Positions 885 to 36,525 are shown, counted from the first letter of the stretch. The stretch is 64,000 nt of DNA from Patescibacteria group bacterium (GCA_041665345.1 JBAYJA010000001.1:457206-521205); one strand, 5' to 3'. Notes: generated from the letters alone by a model not told the origin. A program made the numbers and translations.

Positions 885-1544
885 AGGGGCTTGTCAGGAT
901 TTTATGGCTGGGATACAATCCTCATTACCACAAAAGATATCGCTGATCTTTGATTTCAAGTCGGTAGTCATTGAATGGCAAGGAACGAAGCGCGCGCGAG
1001 ACTTGTTCTTGCGCACATGAAGTGTACGCTAGAAATAGCTGATGGGTGGTAGATTCACCAAGGGACGTATTCGTCAAATGCAGAGCTGCATCTTCGGATG
1101 CTATGTATCGAATGCGAAAGCATTCAACACTCGGCCACGCGACGAACAACGCGAATCTTTCCACTTTCCGGTTATTCCTTTTCTGGAGTCACATCCACCT
1201 CGACACAGCGTACTCGCTCACTTCAACCTTCCAACTCTTTTCTCCCTTTTCAAGGGTTTCATGACTATCACTTCTTGAGGGGTCTTGCGCAAGCAGACCC
1301 CTTTTCTTTTTGCATTTTTTTCAGGAGGGGTATACTATCGGTAACAGAAATAGAAGGAGGGAATATGCAAGTACCTTCAAAGAGGGTATTTATACTAAAG
1401 CTCATTTTTGTGATAGCAGCTTCAGCTGTTGGTTCGTATGGGCTTTCCACGCTGCTTTTTCATCTCGCAGGAAGTTTTTAGAAAAGATAACGAGCCTACC
1501 GCACTCTACTAGAGGGGTGCGGTTTTTTTCTGTCGTGCTACCAT

Positions 1545-2486
1545 ATGCATATGAACAAAGGACGTTGGTTCCTAGGCATTGATGGTGGTGGCACGAAAAC
1601 CGAAGCTGCGCTTGGCAGCAGCCTTGGGGATGTCGTTTGGGGTAAGGCAGGCCCATCCAACCCACGTGCTGTGTCGCGAGAGGTTGCAGCGCTCAATGTC
1701 CGTCAGGCAGTGAAGCAAGCGGAGAAACTGGCTGGCAAGCACCGTCCGTACCGCACAGTCATTGGGATTGCGGGTATGGATACACCGAAAGATGTGGCGG
1801 CAATGCGCCGGGTATTGCGGCAGACGTTGAAAAATATTGTCGAGCCAGATTTTCAATTGGTGAATGACATTATCATTGCTTTGGCCTCGGGAACCACTGA
1901 CCGGCACGCGGCAGTGATCATTTCTGGCACGGGATCCAATGCATATGCGCGTGGCCCCAAAGGCACTGTGCGCGCTGGTGGACGCGGGCATCGATTGGCT
2001 GACGAAGGTTCTGGGTATGCGCAAGGTTTAGCCACCTTGCACGCGGTGACCAAAGCTGCAGATGGCAGGGGAGTTGCAACGCAATTAACCAAGTACGTGC
2101 TGCAGCACTTCCAGATCCGGAAGCCGGAGGAGTTGGTGCACATTGTGTACCAGCCCAGTTTCGGCAAACCGCAGATTGCAGCCCTGGCGCCGTACGTGCA
2201 AGCTGCGGCGGAGAAAGGGGATGTAATAGCAAAAAAAATTCTCGCTGACGCCGCTGATGAACTCGCTTTGCTGGCAACGACAGTTATCCGAAAGAGTGGC
2301 CTGCACCGAAAAATTTTTTCCCTGGTCACCGTGGGTGGGATTTTCAAATGCCCAGTGGTTCTCCCTTCACGCTTCAAGGGTGCTGTGCGCATGGTTGCCC
2401 CCAAAGTGCAATTCATCCGGCCCAAGCTCCGCCCGGCCATTGGCGCATGGGGGATGGCTGGGGGAGGGGAAGCCGTAAAGCTGTAA
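1545..2486 (+). CDS. BadF/BadG/BcrA/BcrD-type ATPase (N-acetylglucosamine kinase-like)
   Basis: N-terminal FLGIDGGGTKTEAAL phosphate-1 motif of the ASKHA sugar-kinase fold; ISGTGSNAY motif. Confidence 0.6.
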   Translation: MHMNKGRWFLGIDGGGTKTEAALGSSLGDVVWGKAGPSNPRAVSREVAALNVRQAVKQAEKLAGKHRPYRTVIGIAGMDTPKDVAAMRRVLRQTLKNIVEPDFQLVNDIIIALASGTTDRHAAVIISGTGSNAYARGPKGTVRAGGRGHRLADEGSGYAQGLATLHAVTKAADGRGVATQLTKYVLQHFQIRKPEELVHIVYQPSFGKPQIAALAPYVQAAAEKGDVIAKKILADAADELALLATTVIRKSGLHRKIFSLVTVGGIFKCPVVLPSRFKGAVRMVAPKVQFIRPKLRPAIGAWGMAGGGEAVKL

Positions 2487-2506
2487 GCCATAGAGATTTA
2501 TTATCT

Positions 2507-2534
2507 CCAGAGCGGCCTTTCTAGGCTGCGGTGG
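2507..2534 (+). repeat. conserved hairpin element YCCAGAGCGGCYTTTCYARGCYGCGG, copy 1 of 3
   Basis: Near-identical copies at 15648 and 39947; all preceded by a T-rich TTTAC stretch. Confidence 0.6.
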
Positions 2535-2577
2535 TTTGTTTGTGACGCATGGGCTTGTCTGTGTATTTCTCCTTTTC

Positions 2578-2712
2578 TGTCATTGCGAGGAACGAGTCTT
2601 CGAGTGACGCGGCAATCCCGATGAACTTCGGATCCAGGACAGGGTAACTACCTTGGTTCTAAGCTACGACGGGATTGCCGCGCTCCTGCTGGAGCTCGCA
2701 ATGACAAGAGGG
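2578..2712 (+). ncRNA. 135-bp nested imperfect palindrome (candidate structured RNA or MITE-like element)
   Basis: Outer arms tgtcattgcgag/ctcgcaatgaca; inner arms gcggcaatcccg/cgggattgccgc; intergenic between the kinase gene and xseA. Confidence 0.3.
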
Positions 2713-2767
2713 GGAGAAATCCCCACTCATTACTGACAGTTGAACTGCGGTGCGCTATAGTCTGTGC

Positions 2768-3922
2768 ATGCCCGATCACCCAATCTTCTCCGTCTCAGAG
2801 TTCATCCAAGTCACCAAGCAACATTTGACGTTGCTGGGTTCGGTTGTGGTGGAAGGGGAGATCACTGGCTACCGGGTGAGTAAAGAACGCCTGGTCTACT
2901 TTGAATTGAAAGACGCCAAAAGCCGCGTGCTGTGCTTTATGCTGGTGGGGGATGCAGAAGCGGAACTGTCAGACGGCATGTCCGTGCGCGTTACGGCAAT
3001 ACCCTCGCTGTTCCAAGGTAGCGGTGGTTTTCACCTGCGCGTGCAGCAAGTGGAATTGGTTGGCCAAGGCGCGCTGCAGCAAGCCCTGCGTTTGCTCCAA
3101 GCTAAATTAGATGCTGAAGGGTTGTTTGCTGAAGGACGAAAGCGGTCACTCCCACAATATCCCAAACGCATTGGTATTATCACTTCTGTTGACGCTGCAG
3201 CGTATACGGACGTGCTCCGGATTTTACGCACGCGCTGGCCGCTGGCTACGGTTGTCCATTTTCCCGTGGGTGTGCAGGGCGCTGGTGCAGTGTCCAGCAT
3301 CGTGGGCGCCTTGCAGCACTGCCATGCAAGCAATGTGGATGTGGTCATTCTCACCCGGGGTGGAGGAAGCCTGGAAGATCTCCAAGCTTTTAATAGTGAA
3401 AAAGTTGCGCGGGCAATTTTCTCCTGCCGCGTGCCGGTGGTGTGTGGCGTGGGACATGAACGTGACTGGACCATTGCTGACCTCGTTGCCGATGTGCGCG
3501 CGTCCACGCCAACCAATGCTGCAGAACGAGCAACGCCATTAGCAACCCAAGTCTTTGCCGATGTGCAAACCATGGAGCGACAAATGGAAGATGGGTGGCG
3601 GATGGTGCTGGGTGATTTGCACGACCGGCTGCACCACCTGACCCGCGACCTGAGTGATGTGGTGCAGGGGACAGTGCAGCGGATTCGGCTGTTGCAGCAA
3701 ACTTGCGTGCAGGCTTTTTCCTCTGGCGTGGAACGCATGCACACCCGTCTGGCCTATGCCACCAAGCTGGTGCAGACGCTTTCACCCGCCGCGACCCTGG
3801 ATCGGGGGTACTCACTCACGACCATTGACGGAAAGGTCGTGACCAACGCTGATTCGGTCAAACCCGGCCAACGCTTGCATACGCGGGTAAAGCGGGGATC
3901 CATTCATTCAACAGTAACGTAA
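2768..3922 (+). CDS. xseA: exodeoxyribonuclease VII large subunit
   Basis: N-terminal OB-fold region (GEITGYRVSKERLVYFELKD) and central catalytic region typical of XseA; xseB lies downstream. Confidence 0.8.
   Translation: MPDHPIFSVSEFIQVTKQHLTLLGSVVVEGEITGYRVSKERLVYFELKDAKSRVLCFMLVGDAEAELSDGMSVRVTAIPSLFQGSGGFHLRVQQVELVGQGALQQALRLLQAKLDAEGLFAEGRKRSLPQYPKRIGIITSVDAAAYTDVLRILRTRWPLATVVHFPVGVQGAGAVSSIVGALQHCHASNVDVVILTRGGGSLEDLQAFNSEKVARAIFSCRVPVVCGVGHERDWTIADLVADVRASTPTNAAERATPLATQVFADVQTMERQMEDGWRMVLGDLHDRLHHLTRDLSDVVQGTVQRIRLLQQTCVQAFSSGVERMHTRLAYATKLVQTLSPAATLDRGYSLTTIDGKVVTNADSVKPGQRLHTRVKRGSIHSTVT
3868..3922 (+). repeat. xseA 3'-terminal 55 bp (copy 1, native end of xseA)
   Basis: ccaacgcttgcatacgcgggtaaagcg... 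; two further copies at 4565 and 5280. Confidence 0.8.
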
Positions 3923-3926
3923 TCCT

Positions 3927-4556
3927 ATGAGAAAAATTTTTGTACTCGGTTTGATGAGCATTTTTTGTGGTATGTTTTTCAATCCCCTTGTTGCAGGTGC
4001 AACACCTGGACCAATGGAAACACAATTTCCAAGTGCAAAAAAGGCAGCCTCTGAAGCAACGATGATTCTCGAAGTAAGAATAACTGATTATTCAATAAGT
4101 CAAGAAAAGTTTCTACCAGGTGAGTACAAATCAGTTAAGCGGGTAAATTGGGAGGTTTTAAAGGTACTAAAAAAACAAGATGGGGTTGTGACAATCCCGC
4201 AAGCAGTCGAATATTCCGCCTACGAAGTCTGCGGCTTATTAGTCGGTTACAAAAAGGAATTCTTAGGATGCGGTGAGTATTTAAGCACCATTGGTGAAAA
4301 GCGGTTAATATATTTTGGTTACGGTGACCATGTGAATCTCGTTTTGCCATCTAAAGGTTTTTTCTGGTATTGGTATTACGCTGGTTCTGCTCGATACGTC
4401 GAATACCTTATTATTCTTGGGGTGATTTCACTTGTTGGAGCAGGTAGCTTTGTTCTGTTTAGGCGACATTTTCAAAATAAAAATAAAGTCTCTCATCAAA
4501 TTGCAAATAATCAGAATATACATGTCCAGGGGAAAAAAGATGATATAAATAATTGA
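3927..4556 (+). CDS. hypothetical membrane-anchored protein (paralog A), AT-rich
   Basis: N-terminal signal/TM, C-terminal TM; paralogous to 4626..5246 (RLIYFGYGDHVNLVLP vs RLVYLDSRDGIHLVLP). Confidence 0.5.
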   Translation: MRKIFVLGLMSIFCGMFFNPLVAGATPGPMETQFPSAKKAASEATMILEVRITDYSISQEKFLPGEYKSVKRVNWEVLKVLKKQDGVVTIPQAVEYSAYEVCGLLVGYKKEFLGCGEYLSTIGEKRLIYFGYGDHVNLVLPSKGFFWYWYYAGSARYVEYLIILGVISLVGAGSFVLFRRHFQNKNKVSHQIANNQNIHVQGKKDDINN

Positions 4557-4564
4557 TTTTTTCG

Positions 4565-4619
4565 CCAATGCTTGCATACGCGGGTAAAGCGTGGCACAAT
4601 TCGTTCCACCGTTACATAA
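4565..4619 (+). repeat. duplicate of xseA 3' end (copy 2)
   Basis: Encodes QCLHTRVKRGTIRSTVT* and is followed 6 nt later by the next ATG. Confidence 0.8.
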
Positions 4620-4625
4620 ACAATT

Positions 4626-5246
4626 ATGAAGTTAGTCTACCGTTTTGGTTTCGTGGCTGTTGTGGGGTTTTCTCTTCTCTTGCCGAGTTTTGCATATGCG
4701 ATTGTTGGAGCAACGCCTTTACCATTTCCTAATGCGTCCAGGGCGTATAGTGAAGCGGATAAAGTTATTGAGGTTAAAATTGTTAGTTCGACAAGTGAAG
4801 AAAAGCGCTCGATTCTTGGTGACTACGTAGTAATGCAGGTTCAATGGGAAATATTACATGTGTATAAAGGTCAAAGTGTCGATAGTTCAAAAATTGAAAC
4901 TTTAAGTATTAGCACCCATGGTTTATGTGAAGTATTCTCCGGGACCGGAGGTCTTGCTGCAGCCGGCGGTGGTATTTTTGATTGTGCTCAATACTTGAAT
5001 GATGTTGGTGAAAATCGATTAGTGTACCTTGATTCTAGAGATGGTATTCATCTCGTTTTGCCAACTGAAAATTTTTACTGGTATAAATGGTACGCTTTAT
5101 TCATGCAGTATTATATTTATCCATTATTTTTCATTATCATTGCTGGGGTTGCAATTGGAGTAATTGCCGTGAAACGTAATATGACTAAGAAAAAACTTTC
5201 ACAAAACAAGAATGCGAACGAAAGCAAAGAGTCGCCTCGCCTTTAG
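4626..5246 (+). CDS. hypothetical membrane-anchored protein (paralog B), AT-rich
   Basis: Same architecture as 3927..4556. Confidence 0.5.
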   Translation: MKLVYRFGFVAVVGFSLLLPSFAYAIVGATPLPFPNASRAYSEADKVIEVKIVSSTSEEKRSILGDYVVMQVQWEILHVYKGQSVDSSKIETLSISTHGLCEVFSGTGGLAAAGGGIFDCAQYLNDVGENRLVYLDSRDGIHLVLPTENFYWYKWYALFMQYYIYPLFFIIIAGVAIGVIAVKRNMTKKKLSQNKNANESKESPRL

Positions 5247-5279
5247 ATTGGAAAAGAAACATGTATAAGTGTTCTTCTG

Positions 5280-5337
5280 CCAACGCTTGCATACCCGCGT
5301 AAAGCGTGGCACAATTCGTTCCACCGTAACCTCATAG
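5280..5337 (+). repeat. duplicate of xseA 3' end (copy 3), directly upstream of xseB
   Basis: Encodes QRLHTRVKRGTIRSTVTS*; nearly identical to copy 2. Confidence 0.8.
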
Positions 5338-5344
5338 TCACTGT

Positions 5345-5569
5345 ATGCCTAAACGCCCTGCTGCCAACACCTTTGCCAAGGATTTTGCTGAACTGGAACG
5401 CATTGCCCAGAAGTTTGAGGCTGGGGCTTTTGACGTGCAGGAAGGTCTGAAAGACTTTGAGAAGGGGATGGCTTTGGCGCAGAGCCTGCGTGAACGGCTG
5501 CAGGATGTGGAGCAGAAGGTGGAAACCATTAAAGCCAAGTACAAGGCAGCCGGGGAGTCTGCTGCGTAA
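5345..5569 (+). CDS. xseB: exodeoxyribonuclease VII small subunit
   Basis: 74-aa coiled-coil protein (FAELERIAQKFEAGAFDVQEGLKDFEKGMALAQSLRERL) typical of XseB. Confidence 0.75.
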   Translation: MPKRPAANTFAKDFAELERIAQKFEAGAFDVQEGLKDFEKGMALAQSLRERLQDVEQKVETIKAKYKAAGESAA

Positions 5570-5911: not shown

Positions 5912-7411
5912 ATGGACCGCCAAGCGGCGTACCGTTGGTACCGAACCCTGGAGATGATTCCAGGAATTTTCATCTGGTCAGCTTTCATTCTGGCAGTTGG
6001 GCTCTCGTTCATCAAACCGCTGTGGGTCATTGTCTTCATCATCGCCTTTGATGCGCTGTGGCTCATTCGCATTTCCTACTTACTGGTGTACTTGCTCACA
6101 TCCTACCGGCGGTTCCGGCATGATTCGCACGTGGACTGGCTGGCGAAGACCCAGCCGTTGCCAAAGTACCAGGAAATCTATCACCTCATTTTTCTGCCAA
6201 CCTACAAGGAGCCAGTGGAAGTGGTTGATCAATCCTTGGCGTCACTCAAAAACATTCGCTACCCACTAGACCGGCTGCTGGTGGTGCTGTGCGGGGAGCA
6301 GAAAGACCATGAGCATTTTCAAAAAGTCTCTGCAGCAATGCAGGAAAAGTACGAAAAGATTTTTGGAAAATTCTTGGTAACGGAACACCCAGCAGATGTC
6401 CCTGGGGAAGTACCGGGTAAAGGGTCCAACACTGCGTACGCTGGTAAGCGCGCGCAAAAGGAAATTGTTGATGCGCTGGGTTTGCCGTACGAAAACGTGG
6501 TCGTTTCATCTTTCGACGTGGACACCGTTGTGCACCCACAGTACTTTGCGTGTTTGACCTACCACTACCTGACCGTACCCAATCCCACCCACGCCAGCTA
6601 CCAGCCCGTGGCGCTGTACAGCAACAACGTGTGGGAGTCACCGTTCCTCATGCGCGTTGTGGCCATGTCCACTACCTTCTGGCTAATGACTGAGCAAATG
6701 CGGCCGGAGCGCTTGTTCACTTTTTCTTCACACTCTATGTCTTTCAAAACCCTGGTGGAGGTTGGGTTTTGGCAGAGTGATATTGTCACCGAAGACTCCC
6801 GTATCTTCATCCAGGGGTTCATTGAGTATGACGGGGATTACCGCGTGGTGCCGTTGTTCATTCCGCTGTCCATGGATACAGTCATGAGCCACACCCTCCG
6901 GCAGAGTTTGAAAAACCAGTACGTGCAGCAGCGTCGCTGGGCATATGGCATTGAGAATTTTCCCTTCATGGTGTGGAACTTCTGGGGCAACAAAGCTATT
7001 CCGTTCATGAAGAAGTTTCGGTACCTGTTCAACCAGCTGGAAGGGTCTTTCTCATGGGCCACGGCTCCCATTCTCATTTTCATCTTGGGTCGTTTACCCA
7101 TCGCCGTCGCAAATCACCAAGGCCTTACTTCTGCGCTTACCGTGAACACACCGCACGTGCTGAGCATCATGATGACCGTGTCGCTGGTTGGGTTGATTGC
7201 TTCAGCCATGCTGAGTATGACCCTGCTCCCACCCCGACCGCGGCATGCCCCGCGCTGGCAGTGGCCCATCATGTTCCTCCAGTGGATTATTTTCCCGGTG
7301 ACCATGGTAGCTTTTGGTTCTATTCCCGCCACCGAAGCCATTACCCGGCTGATGCTGGGCAAGTACCTGGGTTTCAACGTCACGGAGAAGATGCGGAAGA
7401 AGGACGTGTAG
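5912..7411 (+). CDS. processive family-2 glycosyltransferase (cellulose/chitin-synthase-like), multi-TM
   Basis: QQRRW (QxxRW) motif; TM helices at the N and C termini; start moved to the internal Met at 5912 to avoid overlap. Confidence 0.55.
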   Translation: MDRQAAYRWYRTLEMIPGIFIWSAFILAVGLSFIKPLWVIVFIIAFDALWLIRISYLLVYLLTSYRRFRHDSHVDWLAKTQPLPKYQEIYHLIFLPTYKEPVEVVDQSLASLKNIRYPLDRLLVVLCGEQKDHEHFQKVSAAMQEKYEKIFGKFLVTEHPADVPGEVPGKGSNTAYAGKRAQKEIVDALGLPYENVVVSSFDVDTVVHPQYFACLTYHYLTVPNPTHASYQPVALYSNNVWESPFLMRVVAMSTTFWLMTEQMRPERLFTFSSHSMSFKTLVEVGFWQSDIVTEDSRIFIQGFIEYDGDYRVVPLFIPLSMDTVMSHTLRQSLKNQYVQQRRWAYGIENFPFMVWNFWGNKAIPFMKKFRYLFNQLEGSFSWATAPILIFILGRLPIAVANHQGLTSALTVNTPHVLSIMMTVSLVGLIASAMLSMTLLPPRPRHAPRWQWPIMFLQWIIFPVTMVAFGSIPATEAITRLMLGKYLGFNVTEKMRKKDV

Positions 7412-7524
7412 TTTGTTGCCAAGTGTGTGATCAAATACGAGGTTAGTGATCATATGAACCTAGCTTGACACGCGAGGAGTATTGTGATAGTTTCATATGA
7501 AATTAACAAAGTACGTAGAAATGC

Positions 7525-8013
7525 TTGGAGGGAAGTATGTACACAGTTGTATGCCTAATGCTTTTGGGCTTAGTCATTGGAATCATTGGGGCGATCCGGA
7601 AAAGTTGCGGAGCCTTTCTAGGACCATTTGCGGGCTCGTTTGTTGGTGGCCTCGTTGCCTTGTTCGTTCTTGCGGGATTGGGGGATATTCCACAGACACA
7701 TTGGGTTTTGAGTGAAGAATTTTCCATACTCAACATACACACCCACCAGGGTGAGCATCGTCTGTTTCAGAAATACGAATATATCATTTTATTTTCAGAA
7801 ACGGCCACAGGTTTGCGTCATTGGACGATGAATCAAAAAGATGTTGAGTTGAACAATGCTATGTTACCATTTGAACTGGGCGCACCTGGCACTTGCCGCG
7901 TCTACCGGTTAGTCAACACAAATTCTGCATGGGACAACTGGAATATCCGCGATGAGACAAAGTACGTTCTGCACCTGCCTGGCCAGAATGCCTACAGCAC
8001 CTTAGACGAATAG
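7525..8013 (+). CDS. hypothetical membrane protein
   Basis: Two N-terminal TM helices. Confidence 0.4.
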   Translation: MEGSMYTVVCLMLLGLVIGIIGAIRKSCGAFLGPFAGSFVGGLVALFVLAGLGDIPQTHWVLSEEFSILNIHTHQGEHRLFQKYEYIILFSETATGLRHWTMNQKDVELNNAMLPFELGAPGTCRVYRLVNTNSAWDNWNIRDETKYVLHLPGQNAYSTLDE

Positions 8014-8015
8014 GA

Positions 8016-8043
8016 AGTCATCAAAACGCCCTCACAATTTCCT
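8016..8043. terminator. bidirectional hairpin terminator between convergent genes
   Basis: acgccctcaca-N6-tgtgagggcgt. Confidence 0.5.
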
Positions 8044-8063
8044 GTGAGGGCGTCTTCAATGTG

Positions 8064-8792
8064 CTACATTTTGTATTTCTCCAACTGCAACTTTGCATTC
8101 GCGGCAGCCAGCGTGTTGGGGAAGCGGGTAATAACCTCTTCCCATCTTTTTCGCGCGTCGACGACTGCGTACTTCTCCTCGTCAGCCAGTTTAAATTTGA
8201 GTTTGGCCTGATTCAGCATCACCATCCCGCAAATTTCGGGGTTGACCAGCGGGGAGCGATACTCTGGATCAACCAGGTGTTCGGCCTGGATGAAGAGTTG
8301 CAACGCTTCGAAAAGTTGTGACGCTCGGTTCCAGTACCACTTGGCATTGGTCTGATCCTTATGGGCTTCACCAAACAGGTTAGCAATGAGGAACACCACT
8401 TCGGGCTCCTGGGGGTGGCGTCGGACTAATGAATCAGCCGTTTGGAAAACTAGCGTCACTCGCTTGTTGGTATTGCCCAGCAGCTTATCAATGATGCCGT
8501 CTTCGCGGATGCGGAGGGCATCTGCAATCAGTCGATACGCCTGGATCGTAGCCGAAGAGTCGGGGGAGAGCCGGAAGTAGTACCGGGCTGAATCTGCGTC
8601 TTTCCGCGGCGCCGTGCTTTGCTTCAGGAAGACCTTGTTGACAAAGAGCTTTCCAACCGCAGCAGCGTTGTCTCCACTTCGCGGGGTGACCCGCAGCAGC
8701 GAATCCGCTTGTGCGCCAGATAGGAGACAAACACCACTATCCAAAGGGACGGTGGACAACTGGACGAGGATAAAAAAAATGGAAATGAACAC
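8064..8792 (-). CDS. hypothetical secreted protein
   Basis: N-terminal signal peptide; one of only a few minus-strand genes in the window. Confidence 0.45.
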   Translation of the reverse strand: MFISIFFILVQLSTVPLDSGVCLLSGAQADSLLRVTPRSGDNAAAVGKLFVNKVFLKQSTAPRKDADSARYYFRLSPDSSATIQAYRLIADALRIREDGIIDKLLGNTNKRVTLVFQTADSLVRRHPQEPEVVFLIANLFGEAHKDQTNAKWYWNRASQLFEALQLFIQAEHLVDPEYRSPLVNPEICGMVMLNQAKLKFKLADEEKYAVVDARKRWEEVITRFPNTLAAANAKLQLEKYKM

Positions 8793-27200: not shown

Positions 27201-29209
27201 ACCTGAGTGCTATTGACGAAGCACTGAACGTCATCCAAATGGACAATACGCCCGCACCACTTGCAGGGTTATACGAACCAACGATGTCTGGCTTGCTCCA
27301 GCAGTACGTCAGCCATGACACCGCGCGTTTGGATGCAATGGCCGAAGGCGGTGGTGGGACTGGGGGTGACCGCAAAGACTTCAAAGATGCGGTGCTTTTC
27401 CAAGAGGTGCAGACGGGCGGTGATGGACAGGCTGAGGTCACCTTCAAAGTGCCAGACAACCTCACTTCGTGGCGGGTGACTGCACAGGGTATCACTGATG
27501 AAAAACTGGCTGGCTTTACCAGCCTGGGTGTTCCGGTGAGCAAACCCGTTTTTGCACTCCTCACGATGCCTGATGAGTTTGTCAGCCAGGACAAACCCAC
27601 CATCATTGGCCGGGCGTACGGAACGGGATTAACCGCAACTGATGATGTGCAGTTCACTTTGGAAACCCCGGGCCTTGGTGCAAACCAAACCCGTACGGGC
27701 AAAGCCTTTGCCGCGCAGAAGTTTGTGCTGCCAACCTTGGTTGCCGGGGAGCAAGAAGTAAAACTTACTGTCCAGAAAGGCAACCAGAAAGATACGCTCA
27801 TCCGGAAAATCACCGTGGTGGACTCTCGGCTTTCCCGCCAAGCAACTGCGTGGCTCACTGTGGCGCCTGACCTCACCATCACAGGTTCACCCAGCGGGCG
27901 GACTATGGTTGGCGTAACGGATCTGGGCCGTGGTCGGATTATTGCCAACCTACGCATGTTGCAGTGGGGCTGGGGGAACCGGTTGGAACGCAACCTAGCC
28001 GGCGCCATTGCCAGTGATGCGCTGGAAAAGTTGCAACCCGACTTGGTGTACGAAAATAGTGGTTTCAATCCAACTGCCTACCAGCAAGAGGACGGCGGTA
28101 TAAGCGAAGTGATTTGGGGTTCGTCCGATGTCCGCCTTTCCGCCCTGGCCGCTGCCCAGGCAAAAATGTTTGACGCCGTGCGTTTGCGGCAGTACTTGCT
28201 GGGCAAGCTGAACCAGAAAGATATCACTGGGGAGCAAGCAAGCTTTGCCCTGTATGGGTTGGCAAACCTGGGTGAGCCGGTGCTCGCTGAACTAGACGCC
28301 TTTGTGGCTACCTCAGGTATTACGGATGAAGAGAAGCTCACTGCAGCCTTGGCGTACCAAGCTTTGGGTGCAAGCCAGCAAGCCCGGACCATTGCCATGG
28401 GATTGTTGGAAACCTACGGCGAAACCCAGGCGCCGTACATCCGGCTGAAGTTGGGCAACGATGATGATGCTCGGATTGTGAACACAGCGCGCTTTAGCAT
28501 TTTGGCTGAAGGGTTGAAGCTTTCGCAGCGGGTGGGTATTGATACCTACTTGGCGGAGAAATTCCCCAAGGATTACCCCACAAACCTGGAGCGAGCTTTG
28601 GGCATGGTTGCAGCCATTCCATTACTGGACAACACCAACGTGTCTGTTACGTACACAGCCGGCGGTGAACCAAAGACGTTGGCCACGAAAGACGACCAGG
28701 TAACCTACGTCTCGCTCACCACCCAAGAAGCAACCCAATTCAAGGTGACGAAAGTTGACGGCCCAGCTGGGTTGATTGTGCAGACCGTGCAGCCATTCGA
28801 TCCCAACACGGCACCGCATGACACGCGCTTGGGTGTCACCCGCAAGTTCACCCGAGTGGGGGACAGCGGACCGTTGAAGCAAGGCGACATTGTCCGCGTG
28901 GATATTGGCCTGCAGGTCGGCAAGGGGATTGTGGATACCGATTTTACAGTGACGGACTACCTCCCATCTGGCCTGGCCGCCTTGCCCAATCCATGGACCC
29001 GGAATGTCCAAACCAGTGTTGGATTCAACTACCCCACGGAAATTGCTGGCCAGCGCCTGACTTTCAATACCTGGGGGCAGAAGAGCTTCTACTACTACGC
29101 CCGGGTGGTGAACCCCGGAAGTTATGCAGCTGAACCCGCAGTAGCGCAAGGTCAGAAGAGCCGGGATGTGATCAACTACTCTGGTGGCCAAACCCTGGGG
29201 ATTGAGTAA
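24245..29209 (+). CDS. giant (1654 aa) cell-surface protein, alpha-2-macroglobulin/MG-domain-like; no thioester motif seen
   Basis: N-terminal TM anchor, repeated beta-rich domains; no CxEQ found by eye. Confidence 0.4.
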   Translation: MPNLHPDQAPVVISKAFWKTKWFYSLCGVVLLAGVSAGVWFGIVQPRRGTTGGDAFDKIVLPADTASATFVVEATKKDRLGVDPKTSFVLTTTAPIAAKDLEASISFSPKVEFAIASTDEKTFEITPKKPLGDEAVYTLAVNATVQGTAGNEKQTYQWAFQPKTSLAIEGTLPRDEATGVPVNTGIEVTFSTDAVKDFGQHFTITPSAKGAFEQHGRTWVFVPAEKLKAATLYTVTLAAALPVQGSDVTLGQAFSFQFETAVAQQSNDAFTYARFSRSFQSVLPKEAPVLDFGYYGNLGTPKATVHRFASSQEMIEKLHVLDDIPTWATAALDTALISTEGLTEIGTYDAKVESFDNQYVLRLPSGFDAGYYLMTLDVKGRKLQTVIVVSELGAAQFVSRTDTVLWLQDLKAGTPLQKVSAVFALDGKTYSSDSEGVVRLTTPDQAVDTETDFTRSYFTVKTSDNRETVIPFTPEGESFFAWRGMRDRPTHDTYWKYLYLDRTLYRPSDTVNIWGIIQPRKNPKAEEYVVKVWTWNVTDWNGAYLPLVEDRVQTNASGTFTKALALTQLNPGTYTLSIETLTGKEIASKQFEVQTFTKPAFGVSLSPQRQAGIVGEQLPIQAFATFFDGTPTPNAKLRYSSWGQPGGEGTDITANSQGTASFNLPLANTNNSVGTQRVTVFPAEASDGDVQGSADIVVFPSRVISNLETDRNGSQATLKLHVRNVDVTKPVTDWWNAYDTMTSGPAANAKVEVKVIEQVLTKTKRGTRYDFIEKQTVDVYDYRYNDVVRTTLTGVTDAQGAYTKDITLPGTSSRVEVRAFDTKNLAYLQTAYFGSTQYADAESASYRVVDVAQDGRTDAQLVYPLGGTTTLEFRKGNTAVEAKGTFMFVTLQNGIQDVTITDKPQLPFTYTEANIPNVFVTGVWFTGSAFRAPAQYEQAMLQFDAETRALQLELKAEKASYGPGDTVRVTVTAKDAAGKPVDARVNLSAIDEALNVIQMDNTPAPLAGLYEPTMSGLLQQYVSHDTARLDAMAEGGGGTGGDRKDFKDAVLFQEVQTGGDGQAEVTFKVPDNLTSWRVTAQGITDEKLAGFTSLGVPVSKPVFALLTMPDEFVSQDKPTIIGRAYGTGLTATDDVQFTLETPGLGANQTRTGKAFAAQKFVLPTLVAGEQEVKLTVQKGNQKDTLIRKITVVDSRLSRQATAWLTVAPDLTITGSPSGRTMVGVTDLGRGRIIANLRMLQWGWGNRLERNLAGAIASDALEKLQPDLVYENSGFNPTAYQQEDGGISEVIWGSSDVRLSALAAAQAKMFDAVRLRQYLLGKLNQKDITGEQASFALYGLANLGEPVLAELDAFVATSGITDEEKLTAALAYQALGASQQARTIAMGLLETYGETQAPYIRLKLGNDDDARIVNTARFSILAEGLKLSQRVGIDTYLAEKFPKDYPTNLERALGMVAAIPLLDNTNVSVTYTAGGEPKTLATKDDQVTYVSLTTQEATQFKVTKVDGPAGLIVQTVQPFDPNTAPHDTRLGVTRKFTRVGDSGPLKQGDIVRVDIGLQVGKGIVDTDFTVTDYLPSGLAALPNPWTRNVQTSVGFNYPTEIAGQRLTFNTWGQKSFYYYARVVNPGSYAAEPAVAQGQKSRDVINYSGGQTLGIE

Positions 29210-30074
29210 ACGCTATTTCATTCTTGGAGCACTCGCGGTCGCCATCCTGGTTGCTGCGGGTGTTTTGGTGTGGTGGCAAAAATCGGAACCGACGCAGTCT
29301 CAATCATCAGCTGTGCTTAACGAGGTAACTCCTGCAGATGTGCAAACTGCTTTTGCACAAGGTGGAGACCAGCAGACCAAGCAGAATCCCGTCGCGGTTA
29401 TCATGCCGCACCACTTGGTGGCAAAGCAGCTGATGGCGGAAATAGCCACAGTGGTTGGTCAGCAGTGTCCTGCGAACATTGTGGTGCTGGGGCCTGATCA
29501 CGAAAATCGTGGCCAGACCATGGTTACAACCAGCGCTACGTCGTGGCAATCACCCTGGGCAACGTACGACGTCGCCGCGGACATTGTGCAAGCCTTGCAC
29601 GCTGTCCCATTTGTCCAAACTAGCGAGTCGGTAATTGCACAGGAACACAGCGCGCTGTACCCGCTACCCTTCCTACAGCATGTTTGTCCCAAAGCAACCT
29701 TTGTCCAACTCATCGTCCGAAGCGGCTTTGATTTGAAAAAGAACGAACAACTTGCCCAGGCTTTGTACACGACGCTCAAACCTGAAGATGTGGTTGTTGC
29801 CAGTGTTGATTTTTCGCACTACAAAACCGCAGCAGAAGCGCGGGTGGAGGATCAGGAGTCCCTTCGATTGTTAGAAGCAGGGGAGTCAGCTGCTCTGGCA
29901 CACATACCAGCCGATGCGCCGGCGGTGCTTGCGGTTGCCATGCGTTTTGCGCAGCTACGTGAGGCAAGTAATTTTCAATTATACAAAAACACCAACGCCG
30001 CTGAAGTGGCAAACGACCCTTCGCAACCCAGCACCACGAGCTACATAACGGGGTGGTGGGGGAGGGGGAGGTAA
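29184..30074 (+). CDS. MEMO1/AmmeMemoRadiSam-B-like protein with N-terminal TM anchor
   Basis: VIMPHHLVA ... IVVLGPDHEN pattern resembling the PHAG...GPxH motifs of the MEMO1 family. Confidence 0.35.
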   Translation: MAKPWGLSKRYFILGALAVAILVAAGVLVWWQKSEPTQSQSSAVLNEVTPADVQTAFAQGGDQQTKQNPVAVIMPHHLVAKQLMAEIATVVGQQCPANIVVLGPDHENRGQTMVTTSATSWQSPWATYDVAADIVQALHAVPFVQTSESVIAQEHSALYPLPFLQHVCPKATFVQLIVRSGFDLKKNEQLAQALYTTLKPEDVVVASVDFSHYKTAAEARVEDQESLRLLEAGESAALAHIPADAPAVLAVAMRFAQLREASNFQLYKNTNAAEVANDPSQPSTTSYITGWWGRGR

Positions 30075-30490: not shown

Positions 30491-30522
30491 GCTAACCTTA
30501 GCCCTTTTGGCTAACCTTAGCC
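30491..30522 (+). promoter_or_regulatory. tandem 13-bp palindromic direct repeats GCTAACCTTAGCC x2 (putative dimeric-regulator operator)
   Basis: Two exact copies with 19-bp phasing, ending 10 bp upstream of the -35 box. Confidence 0.5.
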
Positions 30523-30532
30523 ATTTTAGGTA

Positions 30533-30561
30533 TTGACAGGATTGGCTATCAGGTATATACT
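30533..30561 (+). promoter_or_regulatory. strong sigma70-type promoter at the island entry
   Basis: TTGACA, 17-nt spacer, TATACT. Confidence 0.6.
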
Positions 30562-30562
30562 C

Positions 30563-30877
30563 GTTTGTTGACTTGAAAATCCATTTACTTCTCGGTTCGC
30601 TGAAAGAGAGAGCAGCGCTCCGAACTGTATTGCTTATAGCTTACGGCTTATGGCCTAAGGCTTACCCAAAGGTGCTCTCTCGCAGAGGACCTGTTCTTTT
30701 ATATATATTCTATTTCGCGACATGGAGGGGGAGCATCCGAGTGGAGCGGCATCGCGGCGGGTTTACTCGCCAAAGACGCTTAACCATTCATCGTGATGTG
30801 CGCTTCGGCGCAAAACATCACTCAGCTAATACTCCTCCAGATCAAGGAATAGAAAACAGAAAAACATCGGAGATCAA
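30563..30877 (+). ncRNA. candidate structured leader RNA A (~315 nt)
   Basis: Follows the promoter; gcgcUUCGgcgc tetraloop hairpin; 9-bp long-range helix gagagagca/ugcucucuc; shares tatagcttacggc and atggaggggg motifs with region B. Confidence 0.3.
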
Positions 30878-31144
30878 ATGAAAACTTTACACATTGTAAG
30901 ACGGGCCGGACACTGCATGCTTGAAACAGTGAAATGCACTGTTGGTTTGGCTGCCTTCATCGTACTTGTTGCGATGATTACCGTCATAAGCATCGTGGCC
31001 GTTTACGGGTGTTATCTGGCCTTCAGTGAAGGTGGTACCAACGTCGGCCTGGGCGTAGTCTGCACATTCGGCGTAGTGCTCTGGACTCTTGCGAGGCAAG
31101 GCTGCTTCCAGAGACGAGACCGGGATCTGACCCGGCAGTACTAA
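30878..31144 (+). CDS. small membrane protein (2 TM)
   Basis: ggag RBS; hydrophobic helices. Confidence 0.4.
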   Translation: MKTLHIVRRAGHCMLETVKCTVGLAAFIVLVAMITVISIVAVYGCYLAFSEGGTNVGLGVVCTFGVVLWTLARQGCFQRRDRDLTRQY

Positions 31145-31273
31145 GTAATTTCTGCGGAGTTGTAGTGGATCCGTCCCTACCGCTCCGCAACTCATCCCGG
31201 AAGACGACATAAGCAGAAGATCGTCGTCCGAGATGAGAAGAAGAATTGAAAATGGAAAAAGAAAGAGGGAAAA

Positions 31274-31630
31274 ATGTCGGAAGAGAAAAAGCTTGAATTT
31301 ACGGTGGTTGGGTTCGCAAGTGCTATAAGTGCGCAGGAAGCACTTAGGCGCCTCAAGGACTTAGGCTACAAGATCCTGAGCGTGAAAGAGTTTCAGGAAT
31401 TTGCCAAGCAGATGGTAACGGATGGCCAAGAATGGCCGACGGTGGATCTGCAAGCGCGACTTGAGGGGACGTTGGTAGTTTCCGGCGAAACTATCGAAGG
31501 TGATGAGGAGCCATACTTTCTCACCCTGAATAGCCTTGGAGAATGGGAGAAGGAAAAAAGGGGAAAACAAGAAAACTTGTATAGACCTTACTTCGCTTGC
31601 ATTCTGCCTCAGTCTTCAAAATCTGAATAG
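31274..31630 (+). CDS. small acidic soluble protein
   Basis: gagggaaaaATG RBS; 118 aa. Confidence 0.4.
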   Translation: MSEEKKLEFTVVGFASAISAQEALRRLKDLGYKILSVKEFQEFAKQMVTDGQEWPTVDLQARLEGTLVVSGETIEGDEEPYFLTLNSLGEWEKEKRGKQENLYRPYFACILPQSSKSE

Positions 31631-32183
31631 GTACCGTGGGTTCGCAGGATCACCCAAATAAAAATCCTGCACTCATCTTGGTTGGCTATACGAAAATAGC
31701 CACTCGGGACGAGACAGCACATTCCAACCATGGTTCTGGCAAGTATGGAGGGGGCTAAGTGTGGGCATGAAAGCTATCGCGCGGGGATTTCTCCGCAAAG
31801 ATAGACGACACGTCTTTGCGCTCCGAGGCTTCGGTCTCAAAGGAGAGCACGAGTATCCCAGGCCTACAGCTTTATAGCTTACGGCCTACGGCTACTCACC
31901 ACTTTCACCTCCAGACTTGCCCAAATACATGGAACGAACGTTGACAACTTTTTCTTTCCGACTTGGAGGGGTCACGAGCACTGCATGGACTAGCGTTACC
32001 TGGGGAGCAATCTCCGCGTAACGTCACAGTACATGCATCATGGTCAGGACTTCGGTCCACAGGCCATCTCTCATTCAGTCTTGGCTTTACCCACCTTCGC
32101 TATGAAGCTTCGGTGGGCAAGCGGCTGGGTTCGCTCGCCTCCAGATCGGAAAGAAAGAAACACACTCAAAAGGAGAATAGAAA
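31631..32183 (+). ncRNA. candidate structured RNA B (~550 nt) with several cUUCGg tetraloop hairpins
   Basis: gaggcUUCGgucuc, ggacUUCGgucc, aagcUUCGgugg, tggctat-N7-atagcca; no convincing ORF; shares motifs with region A. Confidence 0.3.
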
Positions 32184-32404
32184 TGTTGCATCCAGCAGTT
32201 TTTCAAATTAGCTGCTTAGCAGCAATATGCGCCATTGTATATGGCATATTGCATATCAAATCACCCTGGAGCCTTGTAGTTGGGTTATTTTTAGGGGTTA
32301 TATCGGTGACTTCTTTGTTAATACCAACTGTCAACAATTCCCCGGCACATGTGACACTTCTAGCTTTCGTCACGGCATATGTGACGGCAGTTTGCAAAAA
32401 GTGA
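32184..32404 (+). CDS. small membrane protein (73 aa)
   Basis: aaggag RBS; TM helices; the listed longer ORF (32033) runs through RNA-like sequence. Confidence 0.35.
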
Positions 32405-32424
32405 TAAAAGGGAACCTTGGCTAC

Positions 32425-32488
32425 GGGTGAGTCGCATGATTCACCCCCCATCCCTGCCGTCGAGTAATGAACGACGGTGGAGATGGGA
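32425..32488 (+). repeat. intercistronic tandem-hairpin element, family 1 (copy 1a)
   Basis: hp1 gggtga-N10-tcaccc; hp2 cccatccctgccgtcg-agtaatga-acgacggtggagatggg; then A-rich spacer, SD, ATG at 32524. Confidence 0.7.
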
Positions 32489-32523
32489 AGAGAAAAAATT
32501 GCAAAACCAAAGGAGAAAATAAA

Positions 32524-33075
32524 ATGACCAAATATGTAGTGATTTGTTGTGCCATCTTAGTGTTGCTGCTGTTAGCGGCGCAGCGTCAGAATGTTGATCT
32601 CACTCCCTTTAACCGGACAGTGAATGCTCCGGTAGTTTCATACACTTTTGAGATTGACAGTTCGAAGGCGGATAAGCAGGTGATCATTACCAGCTTTAAG
32701 GCCTTGCGGTGGCCAAACGTCAAGACCTTGAGTGATACTCTCACTCAAGAAGATTTCTTTAACGTTCTCGTCATACCGAGTGGATCTAGACCGCAAATAA
32801 AATTTACTGTCTACGAAGACAGTACGTACGACATGCGGGAAGTTACGTTCTTTATCCCGTGGCCGGTGTATGATTCACTTCTGGCTGGAAGAGATATTCA
32901 CATTCACACTTTTCCTCATGACTACACCTTCAACGGTGTAGCAAACTGCGAGAGATGTGGGGAGGCCATGTGCGGTGAATTGACCAAAGATAAGGGCACT
33001 GGATGTACCTTGTCTAAGAATCATCCTGGATCTCACAAAAATGAATGGGATCCGGAAAAAGTTTCTTGGGAGTAA
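32524..33075 (+). CDS. secreted protein with Cys-rich C terminus
   Basis: Signal peptide MTKYVVICCAILVLLLLAAQ; C-terminal CERCGEAMCGE...GCTLSKNHPGSH. Confidence 0.45.
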   Translation: MTKYVVICCAILVLLLLAAQRQNVDLTPFNRTVNAPVVSYTFEIDSSKADKQVIITSFKALRWPNVKTLSDTLTQEDFFNVLVIPSGSRPQIKFTVYEDSTYDMREVTFFIPWPVYDSLLAGRDIHIHTFPHDYTFNGVANCERCGEAMCGELTKDKGTGCTLSKNHPGSHKNEWDPEKVSWE

Positions 33076-33102
33076 TTTGCTCCCATTTGTAAGCCCCTTG
33101 AA

Positions 33103-33176
33103 GAAGGCGAGAGACTCTCCATGTCCTCGCCTTCCTATCCCTGCCGTCGAGTAATGAACGACGGTGGAGATGGGAA
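33103..33176 (+). repeat. tandem-hairpin element, family 1 (1b)
   Basis: hp1 gaaggcgag-N14-ctcgccttc; hp2 ctatccctgccgtcgagtaatgaacgacggtggagatggga. Confidence 0.7.
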
Positions 33177-33205
33177 TAGAAATTAAAACCATTGTTGGAG
33201 GAAAG

Positions 33206-33787
33206 ATGTCAAACAAAAGCATAATTTCAAACTTTCTGAGAGCTTATCGTGAAGACGCCGTTACCCTGCGCCGGGTTGGAACAAATGAAAGCTTTCGTGT
33301 CGTCTTCATTTTCAATCACGCGTTGGGCGATTACACAGACGAAAAGCTAAGCGACCCGATATCGCTCACGGAAGGCGCAAAACTTGCTGCCGACGTGCTC
33401 TGCCACAATGCCAACCATATCTGCATGATATTGGGGGGCTTTGTTCAGCACGGAATCAAGGAACCTGGTTTTTCAGAAGCGGTCAGCGCTTTGAAAAATT
33501 CCCTGAATAACCGTGGGAAAATTCATCCCATGCGCGCCGTTTGCCTCATCAAGGAGTTAATGGCGCATGAAAGGACAATTTTATGTACGCGGGATTTTGA
33601 AAAAAGCGAGACGTACAATATCTCCTTTCTCAGAAATTCCGATCTCAAGCTGACAACCGGTTGGATCTCTGACCCTCTTGACCCAGTGACGGCACGCAAG
33701 CTCGCAGATAATCCAAACTGCGAAAATCGCTGGTCAGCGATTGCCATCCTCGATTGCGGACTCTTTAAGTCCCCCAAGACCCAATAG
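33206..33787 (+). CDS. hypothetical protein (193 aa)
   Basis: ggaggaaag RBS; the listed ORF start at 33164 lies inside the repeat. Confidence 0.4.
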   Translation: MSNKSIISNFLRAYREDAVTLRRVGTNESFRVVFIFNHALGDYTDEKLSDPISLTEGAKLAADVLCHNANHICMILGGFVQHGIKEPGFSEAVSALKNSLNNRGKIHPMRAVCLIKELMAHERTILCTRDFEKSETYNISFLRNSDLKLTTGWISDPLDPVTARKLADNPNCENRWSAIAILDCGLFKSPKTQ

Positions 33788-33797
33788 TACCTTGGTT

Positions 33798-33862
33798 GGG
33801 TGAACCTTTGCGCTCACCCTCCCATCCCTGCCGTCGAGCTATGAACGACGGTGGAGATGGGA
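33798..33862 (+). repeat. tandem-hairpin element, family 1 (1c, no gene downstream)
   Basis: hp1 gggtgaa-N9-tcaccc; hp2 tcccatccctgccgtcgagctatgaacgacggtggagatggga. Confidence 0.7.
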
Positions 33863-34061
33863 ACTAAATATAGACGAAAGGTAAGAAAAAAAGTTTATTT
33901 TGTTCGCAATCTCACTAATATTGCTATCTCGAGGGATAGGCGAAAATTGCAATAAACTCGCGAAGGTTTACGGCGGGTAAAAAATATCCCACCAAGCAGT
34001 GAGGTTGATGCAGGCAGAACACCTCACATGCTATCCCACCAAAAAAGTTCATTTGAACTAA

Positions 34062-34141
34062 GACAGGCGCATCACGGATATCTTCTATCCTCACCCCTGT
34101 CTTCCTCTCCAAGCCCACGTCAACACGCGGGTTTAGAGAGG
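34062..34141 (+). repeat. tandem-hairpin element, family 2 (2a)
   Basis: hp1 gacagg...ggata-tcttc-tatcc...cctgtc; hp2 cctctccaagcccacg-tcaaca-cgcgggtttagagagg. Confidence 0.7.
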
Positions 34142-34180
34142 AAAATGAAATAATAAACACATCACATTTGGAGGTAATGG

Positions 34181-34753
34181 ATGCAGGCATTGAATACCTT
34201 TAGTAATGCGCTGAATGTTGCCGGTATAATTCGGAGACGTCGAGCCTTTAAAGCGTTAGCCCAAATGAACCGTGATTTTATGGTTCTTCGAAACAATCTT
34301 CGGTATGCAAGTGGTTACGCCGGCTGCCCTTTGGATCGGCTGGTACTGCTGTTCAAGGCCGTGTCGCCATTTTACGATCGGCTGCCGGAATTTCGTGCCC
34401 TTTTGGTTAGATTCCAGGCCGGCAATTATGATGGAAGTCTGGGCCGTCAAGTGGAAGCTATTTCCACACTCATAGCCCACTTTGGCAATTGTGGGCGCGA
34501 TCCTTACGGCATGAACCGCACGAAGCCTGGGGACGGGGTTACTGAGTACAAGGTGTATCTTGGGAATATTTACGGTTTGTTCCCCCAACCCGTCCCGACC
34601 TGGAAGGAATGCAAGAATTGGTTAAAAGGTGGTTGGGGTAGCCCAAAAATGGCGCACCTCAATGCCTATGACGTTGTGTGTGGCCAGGCGAATAGTTTCG
34701 CCAACCCGCACTTCAAGCCGATGATTGAGGCACTTGAAGTTCTGGGCGCATAA
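34181..34753 (+). CDS. hypothetical protein (190 aa)
   Basis: ggagg RBS. Confidence 0.4.
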   Translation: MQALNTFSNALNVAGIIRRRRAFKALAQMNRDFMVLRNNLRYASGYAGCPLDRLVLLFKAVSPFYDRLPEFRALLVRFQAGNYDGSLGRQVEAISTLIAHFGNCGRDPYGMNRTKPGDGVTEYKVYLGNIYGLFPQPVPTWKECKNWLKGGWGSPKMAHLNAYDVVCGQANSFANPHFKPMIEALEVLGA

Positions 34754-34775
34754 AGTCAAAATTCGCTCATTGGTT

Positions 34776-34844: not shown

Positions 34845-34878
34845 AAAAATGAAACAATAAATTTTTTGGAGGTATATC

Positions 34879-36503: not shown

Positions 36504-36525
36504 AAACACAGAAAGGAGAACAAAG

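Follow-up and report, generated by a model that had tools for sequence, protein, structure and literature searches.

We report here on the junction between xseA and xseB, the genes for the large and small subunits of exodeoxyribonuclease VII, in a stretch of 64,000 nucleotides (nt) from a Patescibacteria group bacterium (GCA_041665345.1, JBAYJA010000001.1:457206-521205), which as a whole is referred to below as the window. Two AT-rich genes, geneA and geneB, lie between xseA and xseB, and each of them is followed by a further copy of the last ~57 nt of xseA. Comparison with relatives shows that the copy next to xseB is the original end of the gene, stranded in front of xseB, and that xseA itself now ends in a diverged, functional-looking replacement. 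We estimate a probability of about 0.5 that two units of ~700 bp, each a gene plus a tail, were integrated by recombination inside the xseA tail, most likely through the homologous recombination machinery of the host.

Three copies of the xseA end at one junction

The three copies (copies 1, 2 and 3 in the order from xseA to xseB; Table 1) are co-oriented and 56-59 nt long, and their starts are spaced by 697 nt (copy 1 to copy 2) and 715 nt (copy 2 to copy 3). The 22-mer core GCTTGCATACGCGGGTAAAGCG gave three matches with up to three mismatches, with none elsewhere in the 64 kb and none in 100 shuffled sequences, which bears out the three xseA ends, each with its own stop codon, that were described in the initial annotation. 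Read in the frame of xseA, every copy closes with a stop codon, and the gap from there to the next ATG is 4, 6 and 7 nt for copies 1, 2 and 3 respectively; the distance of 6-8 nt that had been given for all three is thus right for copies 2 and 3, but not for copy 1. Copy 3 lies outside every annotated gene and carries the native junction to xseB. As had been noticed from the outset, copies 2 and 3 resemble each other (88-91% identity) more than either resembles copy 1.

Table 1. Features of the xseA-xseB locus, with positions counted from the first nucleotide of the window
Feature	Position	Strand	Remarks
Candidate promoter	2733..2761	+	sigma-70-like, CTGACA-17-TATAGT; best match, 10/12; just 5' of xseA ATG
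xseA	2768..3922	+	exodeoxyribonuclease VII large subunit, 384 aa, ATG at 2768; Pfam Exonuc_VII_L 1.7e-81, OB fold
Repeat copy 1	3867..3922	+	functional xseA 3' end; encodes ...QRLHTRVKRGSIHSTVT*, stop TAA
geneA	3927..4556	+	orphan, 209 aa
Repeat copy 2	4564..4619	+	orphan xseA end between geneA and geneB, stop TAA
geneB	4626..5246	+	paralogue of geneA, 206 aa
Repeat copy 3	5279..5337	+	ancestral xseA 3' end (...RGTIRSTVTS*), stop TAG
xseB	5345..5569	+	exodeoxyribonuclease VII small subunit, 74 aa; Pfam Exonuc_VII_S 3.1e-12

Polarity of the copies

Copy 1 had been taken for the native end of xseA in the initial annotation, and comparison with the two closest relatives, loci L001 and L188, reverses this. 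Taken with the 7-nt spacer and the ATG of xseB that follow it, copy 3 is a single base away from the L188 junction and two bases away from that of L001 (the base at the left edge of the repeat being excluded), and it encodes ...RGTIRSTVTS*, exactly as both of these loci do. The left half of copy 1 resembles the relatives, and from ...GTAAAGCG onwards 8 of 27 positions differ from the ancestral sequence, to which the right half is ~70% identical; the final Ser codon is missing, and the codons ACC, CGT, GGC and ACx, none of which varies among seven relatives, are altered. With the missing codon counted as a ninth difference in 28, the excess of this divergence over a background of 12-14% has a binomial P of about 0.004-0.012. 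As xseA just upstream of the tail is ~91% identical to that of L001, the breakpoint lies inside the tail, and the divergent end, which we call X-type, comprises the last ~28 nt of the gene (3895-3922; the end as found in copy 1 is AAGCGGGGATCCATTCATTCAACAGTAACGTAA). These comparisons show copy 3 to be the ancestral end of xseA, and the last ~28 nt of copy 1 to be derived or foreign.

Copies 1 and 3 differ by 10 substitutions in 17 codons and by one codon, which copy 1 lacks, and 8 of the 10 substitutions fall at third codon positions (P = 0.003). The C-terminus encoded by copy 1, RGSIHSTVT, fits the pattern of the family, RGT(I/L)xST(V/I/A)x, the relatives having RGTI(R/H/D)STV(T/D). Four of the five differences between copies 2 and 3 are also at third positions (P = 0.045), and because its changes are mostly of this kind the orphan copy 2 appears to have diverged while it was read as the end of an xseA gene. 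Copy 2 is 81% identical to copy 1 and 88-93% (about 91%) identical to copy 3, and it combines features of the two: like copy 1 it has ACG, lacks the Ser codon and ends in ...AC(R)-TAA, and its middle 29 nt are identical to copy 3. A G at tail position 18 is common to copies 1 and 2, and the runs of exact identity between copies measure 22, 29 and 16 nt. This mosaic of copy 1-like and copy 3-like segments indicates that the copies have exchanged sequence with one another.

An empty site in relatives and the same structure in a second assembly

A search with the XseA protein leads to Patescibacteria (Kerfeldbacteria-like) genomes. The xseB gene could be located in 16 relatives, i.e. 13 genome loci (L001-L010 and L012-L014), two further metagenome contigs and L188; in every one of them it comes directly after xseA, at a distance of 2-31 nt, and L001, L188 and the 14 others have a single tail copy at this uninterrupted junction. 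The pair of geneA and geneB is thus a lineage-specific insertion. L001 and L188 have at least 90% XseA identity to the window and 86-89% DNA identity in xseA; for L001 the values are 96% for XseA and 97% for XseB at the amino acid level, and 86% for xseA at the DNA level. The initial annotation had proposed to look in relatives for an intact xseA-xseB junction, and such junctions are indeed what they have; with these empty sites, and with no homologue of the inserted genes in 1.84 billion representative proteins, the arrangement is not shared by all relatives and the paralogues are not core genes.

No second downstream copy of the xseA end was found at 56 other xseA loci (best score 14.5, compared with 31 here). 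A scan of metagenome DNA with the tail pattern GCTTGCANACNCGNNTNAAGCG gave, among at least 118 listed stretches, four real xseA ends, all of them adjacent to xseB and two of them repeating genome loci already counted, and none of the metagenome matches listed was a locus with two tail copies. Viral contigs scanned for the tail pattern gave seven chance matches and no relatives of geneA or geneB, and exact-protein look-ups of geneB, XseB and orf108 for strain variants returned the same genome only, in two assemblies.

The second of these assemblies, contig Ga0376277_0010783 of the Joint Genome Institute (JGI), has the same arrangement base for base, save for a 1-nt deletion in xseB. It is barely credible, in consequence, that two alternative alleles of one locus were joined in tandem during assembly. 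The source is a metagenome-assembled genome, and repeats could in principle confuse an assembler; however, the two assemblies (a European Nucleotide Archive k141 contig of 1,075,605 bp and a JGI contig of 19,436 bp) agree on the structure, and since the repeats, at 56-59 nt, are shorter than the k-mer length of 141 and differ from one another, unique k-mers span every junction. The deletion in the JGI contig (locus L059; equivalent to window position 5395) cuts the called xseB product to 44 aa; it reflects either an error made in sequencing or assembly, or a variant within the population in which xseB is inactivated.

Conservation of the tails and divergence of the genes

At the boundary of the repeats the identity between the units steps sharply from ~40% in the genes to 88-93% in the tails, in both units alike, and the left limit of xseA homology falls at the same base (GCCAA) in copies 2 and 3. 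This shared boundary and the sharp step in identity imply that gene and tail form one unit, and that the tails are much younger than the genes or have been refreshed more often. Across their length geneA and geneB share 48% of their nucleotides, the third codon positions (41%) are saturated and the last 40 codons are ~40% identical. The units are thus not similar along their whole length, and their non-coding tails are better conserved than their synonymous sites. With genes as diverged as this directly beside tails of 88-93% identity, a tandem duplication by unequal crossover, which the initial annotation had offered as the alternative to insertion, is disfavoured as a recent event.

The native xseA tail is ~97% identical among the window, L001 and L188, compared with 86-89% for the whole gene, and in eight genomes the identity of synonymous codons is 0.57-0.58 in the last 25 codons of xseA as against 0.44 overall. 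In the window, L001-L007 and L188, several four- and six-fold degenerate codons of the series CGC TTG CAx ACC CGx xTx AAG CGT GGC ACx do not vary. This pattern of codon use hints at a cis element for the expression of xseB that is embedded in the coding end of xseA.

The inserted genes

As initially proposed, geneA and geneB are paralogous (BLASTP 2e-26, 28-29% amino acid identity) and AT-rich relative to xseA and xseB. Their GC contents, which it had been suggested to examine, are 0.38 and 0.39, and at third codon positions (GC3) they have values of 0.31 and 0.32 as compared with 0.60 for xseA and xseB, so that this cargo is compositionally foreign to the operon in which it lies. Both genes are followed by a T-rich linker, and with their paralogous genes and common left limit of xseA homology the two units are homologous as entire blocks. 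The two products share an architecture of a signal-peptide-like N-terminus, a beta-rich middle with a conserved Cys and conserved LVLP and FxWY motifs, and a C-terminal transmembrane helix, which suggests that they are small type-I membrane or secreted proteins with an extracytoplasmic domain of ~130 residues. An AlphaFold2 model built from the two-sequence alignment of geneA and geneB was poor, with a predicted local distance difference test score (pLDDT) of 50.

Two word-indexed searches of 5.8 billion clustered proteins returned only the two window genes, and so did an exhaustive profile search of the 1.84 billion representatives. No credible family was found for either protein in Pfam, NCBIfam, PHROGs or PADLOC, and the cargo has no nuclease or methylase domain that would identify it as restriction-modification genes.

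Proposed route of integration

A search of the insert and of the tested open reading frames (ORFs) of the 64-kb window revealed no integrase, recombinase or transposase domain, and each unit consists of one orphan ORF of 206-209 aa, so that neither encodes a tyrosine or serine recombinase of its own. The tails fold, as RNA or single-stranded DNA, no better than shuffled sequences (z from -0.07 to -1.3). In the route that we favour, two single-gene units of ~700 bp, with the periods of 697 and 715 nt given above, would have entered the last ~57 nt of xseA one behind the other and in the same orientation. Each would consist of an orphan gene that lacks a promoter and encodes a small membrane-anchored or secreted protein, together with a single copy of the xseA 3' end. 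A single crossover of the Campbell type between a tail-bearing circle and the resident xseA end, taking place within the 57 nt and either twice or once with a two-unit circle, would duplicate this segment, leave xseA intact with a cassette-derived end (copy 1) and strand the ancestral copy 3 before xseB. Each cargo gene would thereby take up the usual position of xseB, 4-7 nt after an xseA-type stop codon. The boundaries common to both units, the host-like tails on anciently diverged cargo and the mosaic state of copy 2 would follow as well.

The catalyst would be the host homologous recombination machinery acting on taken-up DNA, which we consider the likeliest because no recombinase was found, the tails are unstructured, runs of identity of 16-29 nt are available and the copies bear signs of mutual exchange. 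Repeated exchange with host xseA ends would keep the tails host-like while the cargo diverges, and the extreme right end, lying beyond any crossover, would escape overwriting; it is there that copies 1 and 2 differ most from the ancestral sequence. The whole may be described as insertion with long target duplication, followed by amplification and release via the repeats, in the manner of the cycle proposed for restriction-modification genes.

Several points weigh against this route. The 16-29 nt of homology are marginal for RecA-type recombination, being about the minimum length usually quoted for RecA-dependent exchange. None of the best 120 of 1733 XseA homologues ends in GSIHST (RGSIHSTVT), and with no sampled XseA of this type either the donor is unsampled or copy 1 diverged in place. 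In the searches made, no second genome has geneA- or geneB-like units or an orphan xseA tail; the structure occurs once, in two near-identical assemblies, and mobility has never been observed. In addition, the preservation of copies 2 and 3 could reflect a cis function for the downstream gene and not recency or refreshing, and the statistics given above rest on 5-10 substitutions in 57 nt. The window covers 64 kb of a 1.08-Mb genome, and a recombinase acting in trans from elsewhere is possible.

Comparison with known integration systems

When the prophage e14 (or phage 21) integrates into the 3' end of icd of Escherichia coli, leaving the pseudogene icdC, the incoming DNA supplies a replacement 3' end and the original end is displaced beyond the insert; most differences between the two ends are synonymous or conservative, and recombination between them restores a chimeric functional gene (PMC13626634). 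The likeness to e14 (and phage 21) at xseA is that copy 1 would be the element-derived end and copy 3 the icdC-like remnant: the element-derived end lies next to the gene, the ancestral end is distal and the gene is intact. In contrast with e14, a ~15-kb prophage with its own integrase and excisionase, the inserts here are of ~700 bp with one orphan gene each and no recombinase found, and there are two tandem units with a repeat of only ~57 nt. Neither a free element of this type nor one at the same site in other genomes was found in the searched proteins, the viral contigs, the 56 other xseA loci or the metagenome matches listed. The locus looks like an integration of the e14/icd type in miniature, without a recombinase found, an uncommon variant of a known pattern. 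The site-specific modules carrying the 3' end of their target that were envisaged in the initial annotation are upheld in so far as the layout fits replacement-end elements; their site specificity is not, no recombinase having been found in the insert or the window ORFs.

The locus may also be compared with insertion with long target duplication (Nobusato et al. 2000; Furuta et al. 2010), in which direct target repeats of >30 bp, often across a stop or start codon, occur without mobility genes, mostly in naturally competent species, and for which Furuta et al. (2010) proposed amplification via the repeats and a cycle of release and reinvasion (PMC2853133). Here too the target repeats exceed 30 bp and correspond to a single-copy empty site, no mobility gene is found in or next to the insert, the repeat is not multicopy in the 64 kb and the target gene survives; known inserts of this kind often have a deviant GC content, and the AT-rich insert is alike in this. 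However, the published repeats are near-identical (44/46 to 47/47), whereas copy 1, next to the gene, is markedly diverged in a coding-like pattern; the known cargo consists of restriction-modification genes, with DNA breakage as the proposed cause, whereas here we find small membrane or secreted orphans; and the present locus has two anciently diverged paralogous units with one repeat boundary.

Integron cassettes resemble the inserted units in being promoterless single-ORF units of ~0.5-1 kb with one site-sized repeat each, co-oriented behind one promoter, and their cargo, as here, consists mostly of genes of unknown function. In contrast to integrons, no IntI or attI was found here and the repeat reproduces the coding end of a host gene; an IntI-type integrase with attI and a Pc promoter was not found in the tested ORFs of the window, and the repeats have no attC-like fold nor, on reading of the sequence, a GTTRRRY core at their boundaries (attC sites being imperfect palindromes, folded in single-stranded form, with R''/R' core sites RYYYAAC ... 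GTTRRRY). Genomic islands at tRNA and tmRNA genes are alike in having the 3' part of the target at the attachment site, direct flanking repeats and stacking at one site, but here the target is protein-coding, no integrase was found and the insert is one to two orders of magnitude smaller.

Alternative explanations

The structure could have arisen in place, a history that we regard as possible but unlikely. One old insertion with long target duplication would have been followed by tandem duplication of tail plus gene through unequal crossover and by divergence of the genes, with copies 2 and 3 held by a cis signal for the next gene (translation initiation or coupling, or an internal promoter) and copy 1, with xseB no longer behind it, left with its protein-coding constraint and drifting synonymously. 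Amplification through flanking long repeats is documented (PMC2853133), and the derived states common to copies 1 and 2 (ACG, loss of the Ser codon and TAA) fit duplicates consisting of copy 1 with geneA and copy 2 with geneB. The greater conservation of the tail nucleotides than of the rest of xseA in relatives, the changes of copy 1 at exactly the codons invariant in seven relatives, mostly synonymous, and the lack of a known donor with a copy 1-type end agree with such a history as well. However, with genes saturated at 41% beside copies that are 81% (1 and 2) and 91% (2 and 3) identical, it would demand very strong selection on every non-coding base of copies 2 and 3, and no RNA structure or consensus promoter was detected to supply it. 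A long residence is also argued against by the unameliorated composition of the cargo, whose GC3 of 0.31 has not shifted towards the 0.60 of the host, and by the paralogue identity of 29%, which implies an insertion before the split from L001 and L188, and probably from L002-L007, and hence several precise losses in relatives.

That the units are non-autonomous site-specific cassettes seems to us improbable. The ~57-nt tail would then be attP-like, and a tyrosine or serine recombinase encoded elsewhere would stack promoterless genes at the xseA end, which would play the part of attI in a system integron-like in function. The left boundary, identical in copies 2 and 3, the near-constant distance from ATG to stop and the overlap of the inferred crossover intervals of both events (tail positions about 7-18) would all be expected of such cassettes, as would the tandem, co-oriented, promoterless ~700-bp orphan genes behind one promoter; the replacement-end layout agrees with the integrase-driven e14/icd case, and a second array of co-oriented orphan genes with repeat families in the window shows a cassette-like organization. 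In contrast, neither the insert nor the tested ORFs of the 64 kb were found to encode a recombinase, the tails have neither an attC hairpin structure nor an obvious inverted pair of core sites, and such cassettes were not found in the other genomes or viral contigs searched or among the metagenome matches listed; the G at tail position 18 in both copies 1 and 2 would need an extra assumption under a strictly conservative single-point exchange. We find it distinctly improbable that the units represent an undescribed class of minimal integrative gene cassette, with the coding end (~57 nt) of a housekeeping gene as the attachment site, mobilized in trans, whether by an unlinked recombinase or by nothing more than the competence and RecA machinery of an ultra-small Patescibacteria cell, and stacked at xseA-xseB as at attI, of which cassette economy the orphan array at 30.5-39.7 kb would be another face. 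Very doubtful is the import in one step, by ordinary homologous replacement, of a block made of an X-type end, geneA, copy 2 and geneB from an unsampled related species, with the left crossover in the tail only because the tail is the best-conserved stretch beside the junction. Near the junction no stretch is more conserved in its nucleotides than the tail, the sequences on either side, xseA and xseB, are native-like, and the variation of copies 1 and 2 resembles protein-coding divergence; however, such an import merely shifts the origin of the structure to another genome, its crossovers, both in copies of the same 57-nt target, are those of the Campbell scheme set out above, and no such donor is present in the best 120 of 1733 XseA homologues.

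Genomes of the Patescibacteria (candidate phyla radiation, CPR) are tiny and have few recognizable mobile elements, and the acquisition of genes in this group is poorly understood. At xseA-xseB surface-type orphan genes entered a housekeeping operon without disrupting either gene and with no visible mobility gene, and this example, resolved to the base and with empty sites in close relatives, bears on gene gain in recombinase-poor, ultra-small bacteria. If the favoured integration of tail-bearing units is correct and the units do cycle via the target end that they carry, this would be a very cheap form of gene mobility, suited to naturally competent, recombinase-poor organisms. For annotation it is a warning that a conserved gene may now carry an imported 3' end, and that a downstream 'pseudogene fragment' may be the original. 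As a single occurrence, with a mechanism that we infer, it is a useful lead and not yet evidence for a new mobility system.

Expression signals

As the sole good promoter match lies 5' of xseA and no terminator was called in the insert, xseA, geneA, geneB and xseB probably form one transcription unit that is read from the xseA promoter. Neither a sigma-70 consensus promoter nor a terminator was called within or next to the three repeats; a TTGCAT-17-(TGg)CACAAT that can be seen by eye in copies 2 and 3 and in relatives is too weak to claim. From the end of the promoter match to the xseA ATG (2768) there are 6 nt, a distance suggesting that the xseA mRNA is leaderless or nearly so, and no recognizable Shine-Dalgarno sequence was found at xseA, geneA, geneB, xseB or orf108. 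Rfam gave one tRNA in the whole window and nothing else.

Over 4554-4619 the TGA of geneA is in frame with copy 2, and read-through would add FFRQCLHTRVKRGTIRSTVT, stopping 6 nt before the geneB ATG. Likewise, an in-frame GTG (5269) precedes copy 3, giving a possible mini-ORF of 22 codons that ends 7 nt before xseB. The in-frame copy 2 and the copy 3 mini-ORF may have a role in the coupling of termination and reinitiation, or may be due to chance (a frame coincidence of 1 in 3). Recoding of TGA was considered for the geneA stop and rejected, translation table 11 yielding long uninterrupted conserved ORFs throughout the window.

Gene content around xseA in relatives

The neighbours of the insert are a BadF-type ATPase gene, xseA, xseB and a glycosyltransferase gene. 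In relatives the gene content of the operon downstream of xseA varies, which makes this a small hotspot: in L003 a gene of 246 aa (7366-8106) separates xseB from orf108, and a gene for a signal-peptide protein of ~130 aa, absent from the window and L001, lies between orf108 and the glycosyltransferase gene in L002 (7712-8116), L004 (7708-8139), L005 (3106-3492) and L007 (7765-8163). The variable genes of L002-L005 and L007 have a host-like GC content and no flanking direct repeats, and the tail-duplication mode is therefore not general in the clade. Upstream of xseA, L188 has a gene for a 922-aa FG-GAP/NAGPA protein (1050-3818) that overlaps the called xseA start, in the position that the BadF-type ATPase occupies in the window and in L001-L007, so that synteny 5' of xseA is not fixed either.

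Other features of the window

The interval between a Memo-like gene (29184-30074) and murJ (40037-41689) contains a ~9-kb array (30500-39700) of about 12 small ORFs of 100-210 aa, all in one orientation and with no Pfam match. Interspersed among them are repeats of 40-80 nt, belonging to several families, which form imperfect hairpins (CTCCCATCTCTGCAGTCA...TGACCGTAGAGATGGGAG and TTCCTCTCCAAGCCCACGT...ACGCGGGTTTAGAGAGGAA), the 3' arms of which are purine-rich and Shine-Dalgarno-like. The array is cassette-array-like, in the manner of integrons or of clusters of attC sites lacking integron-integrases (CALIN), with no integrase nearby and no canonical attC core sites. A second AT-rich island, at 51000-55800, has a GC content of 0.29-0.40 as against about 0.53 in its flanks, and contains unannotatable ORFs, a phosphatidylserine decarboxylase gene and the part of a 945-aa histidine kinase gene that encodes its N-terminal seven-transmembrane (7TM)/GAF region; the GC content climbs abruptly to 0.52 inside this ORF, and no long direct repeats flank the 51-55.8 kb island.

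Between the BadF-type ATPase gene and the xseA promoter there is a near-perfect long hairpin or palindromic element of ~160 nt (2563-2722; TCTCCTTTTCTGTCATTGCGAGG...CTCGCAATGACAAGAGGGGGAGA), and the surrounding 206 nt fold with -85 kcal/mol. The hairpin may be a regulatory element or one resembling a miniature inverted-repeat transposable element (MITE), and ~65 nt of it are 91% conserved in L001.

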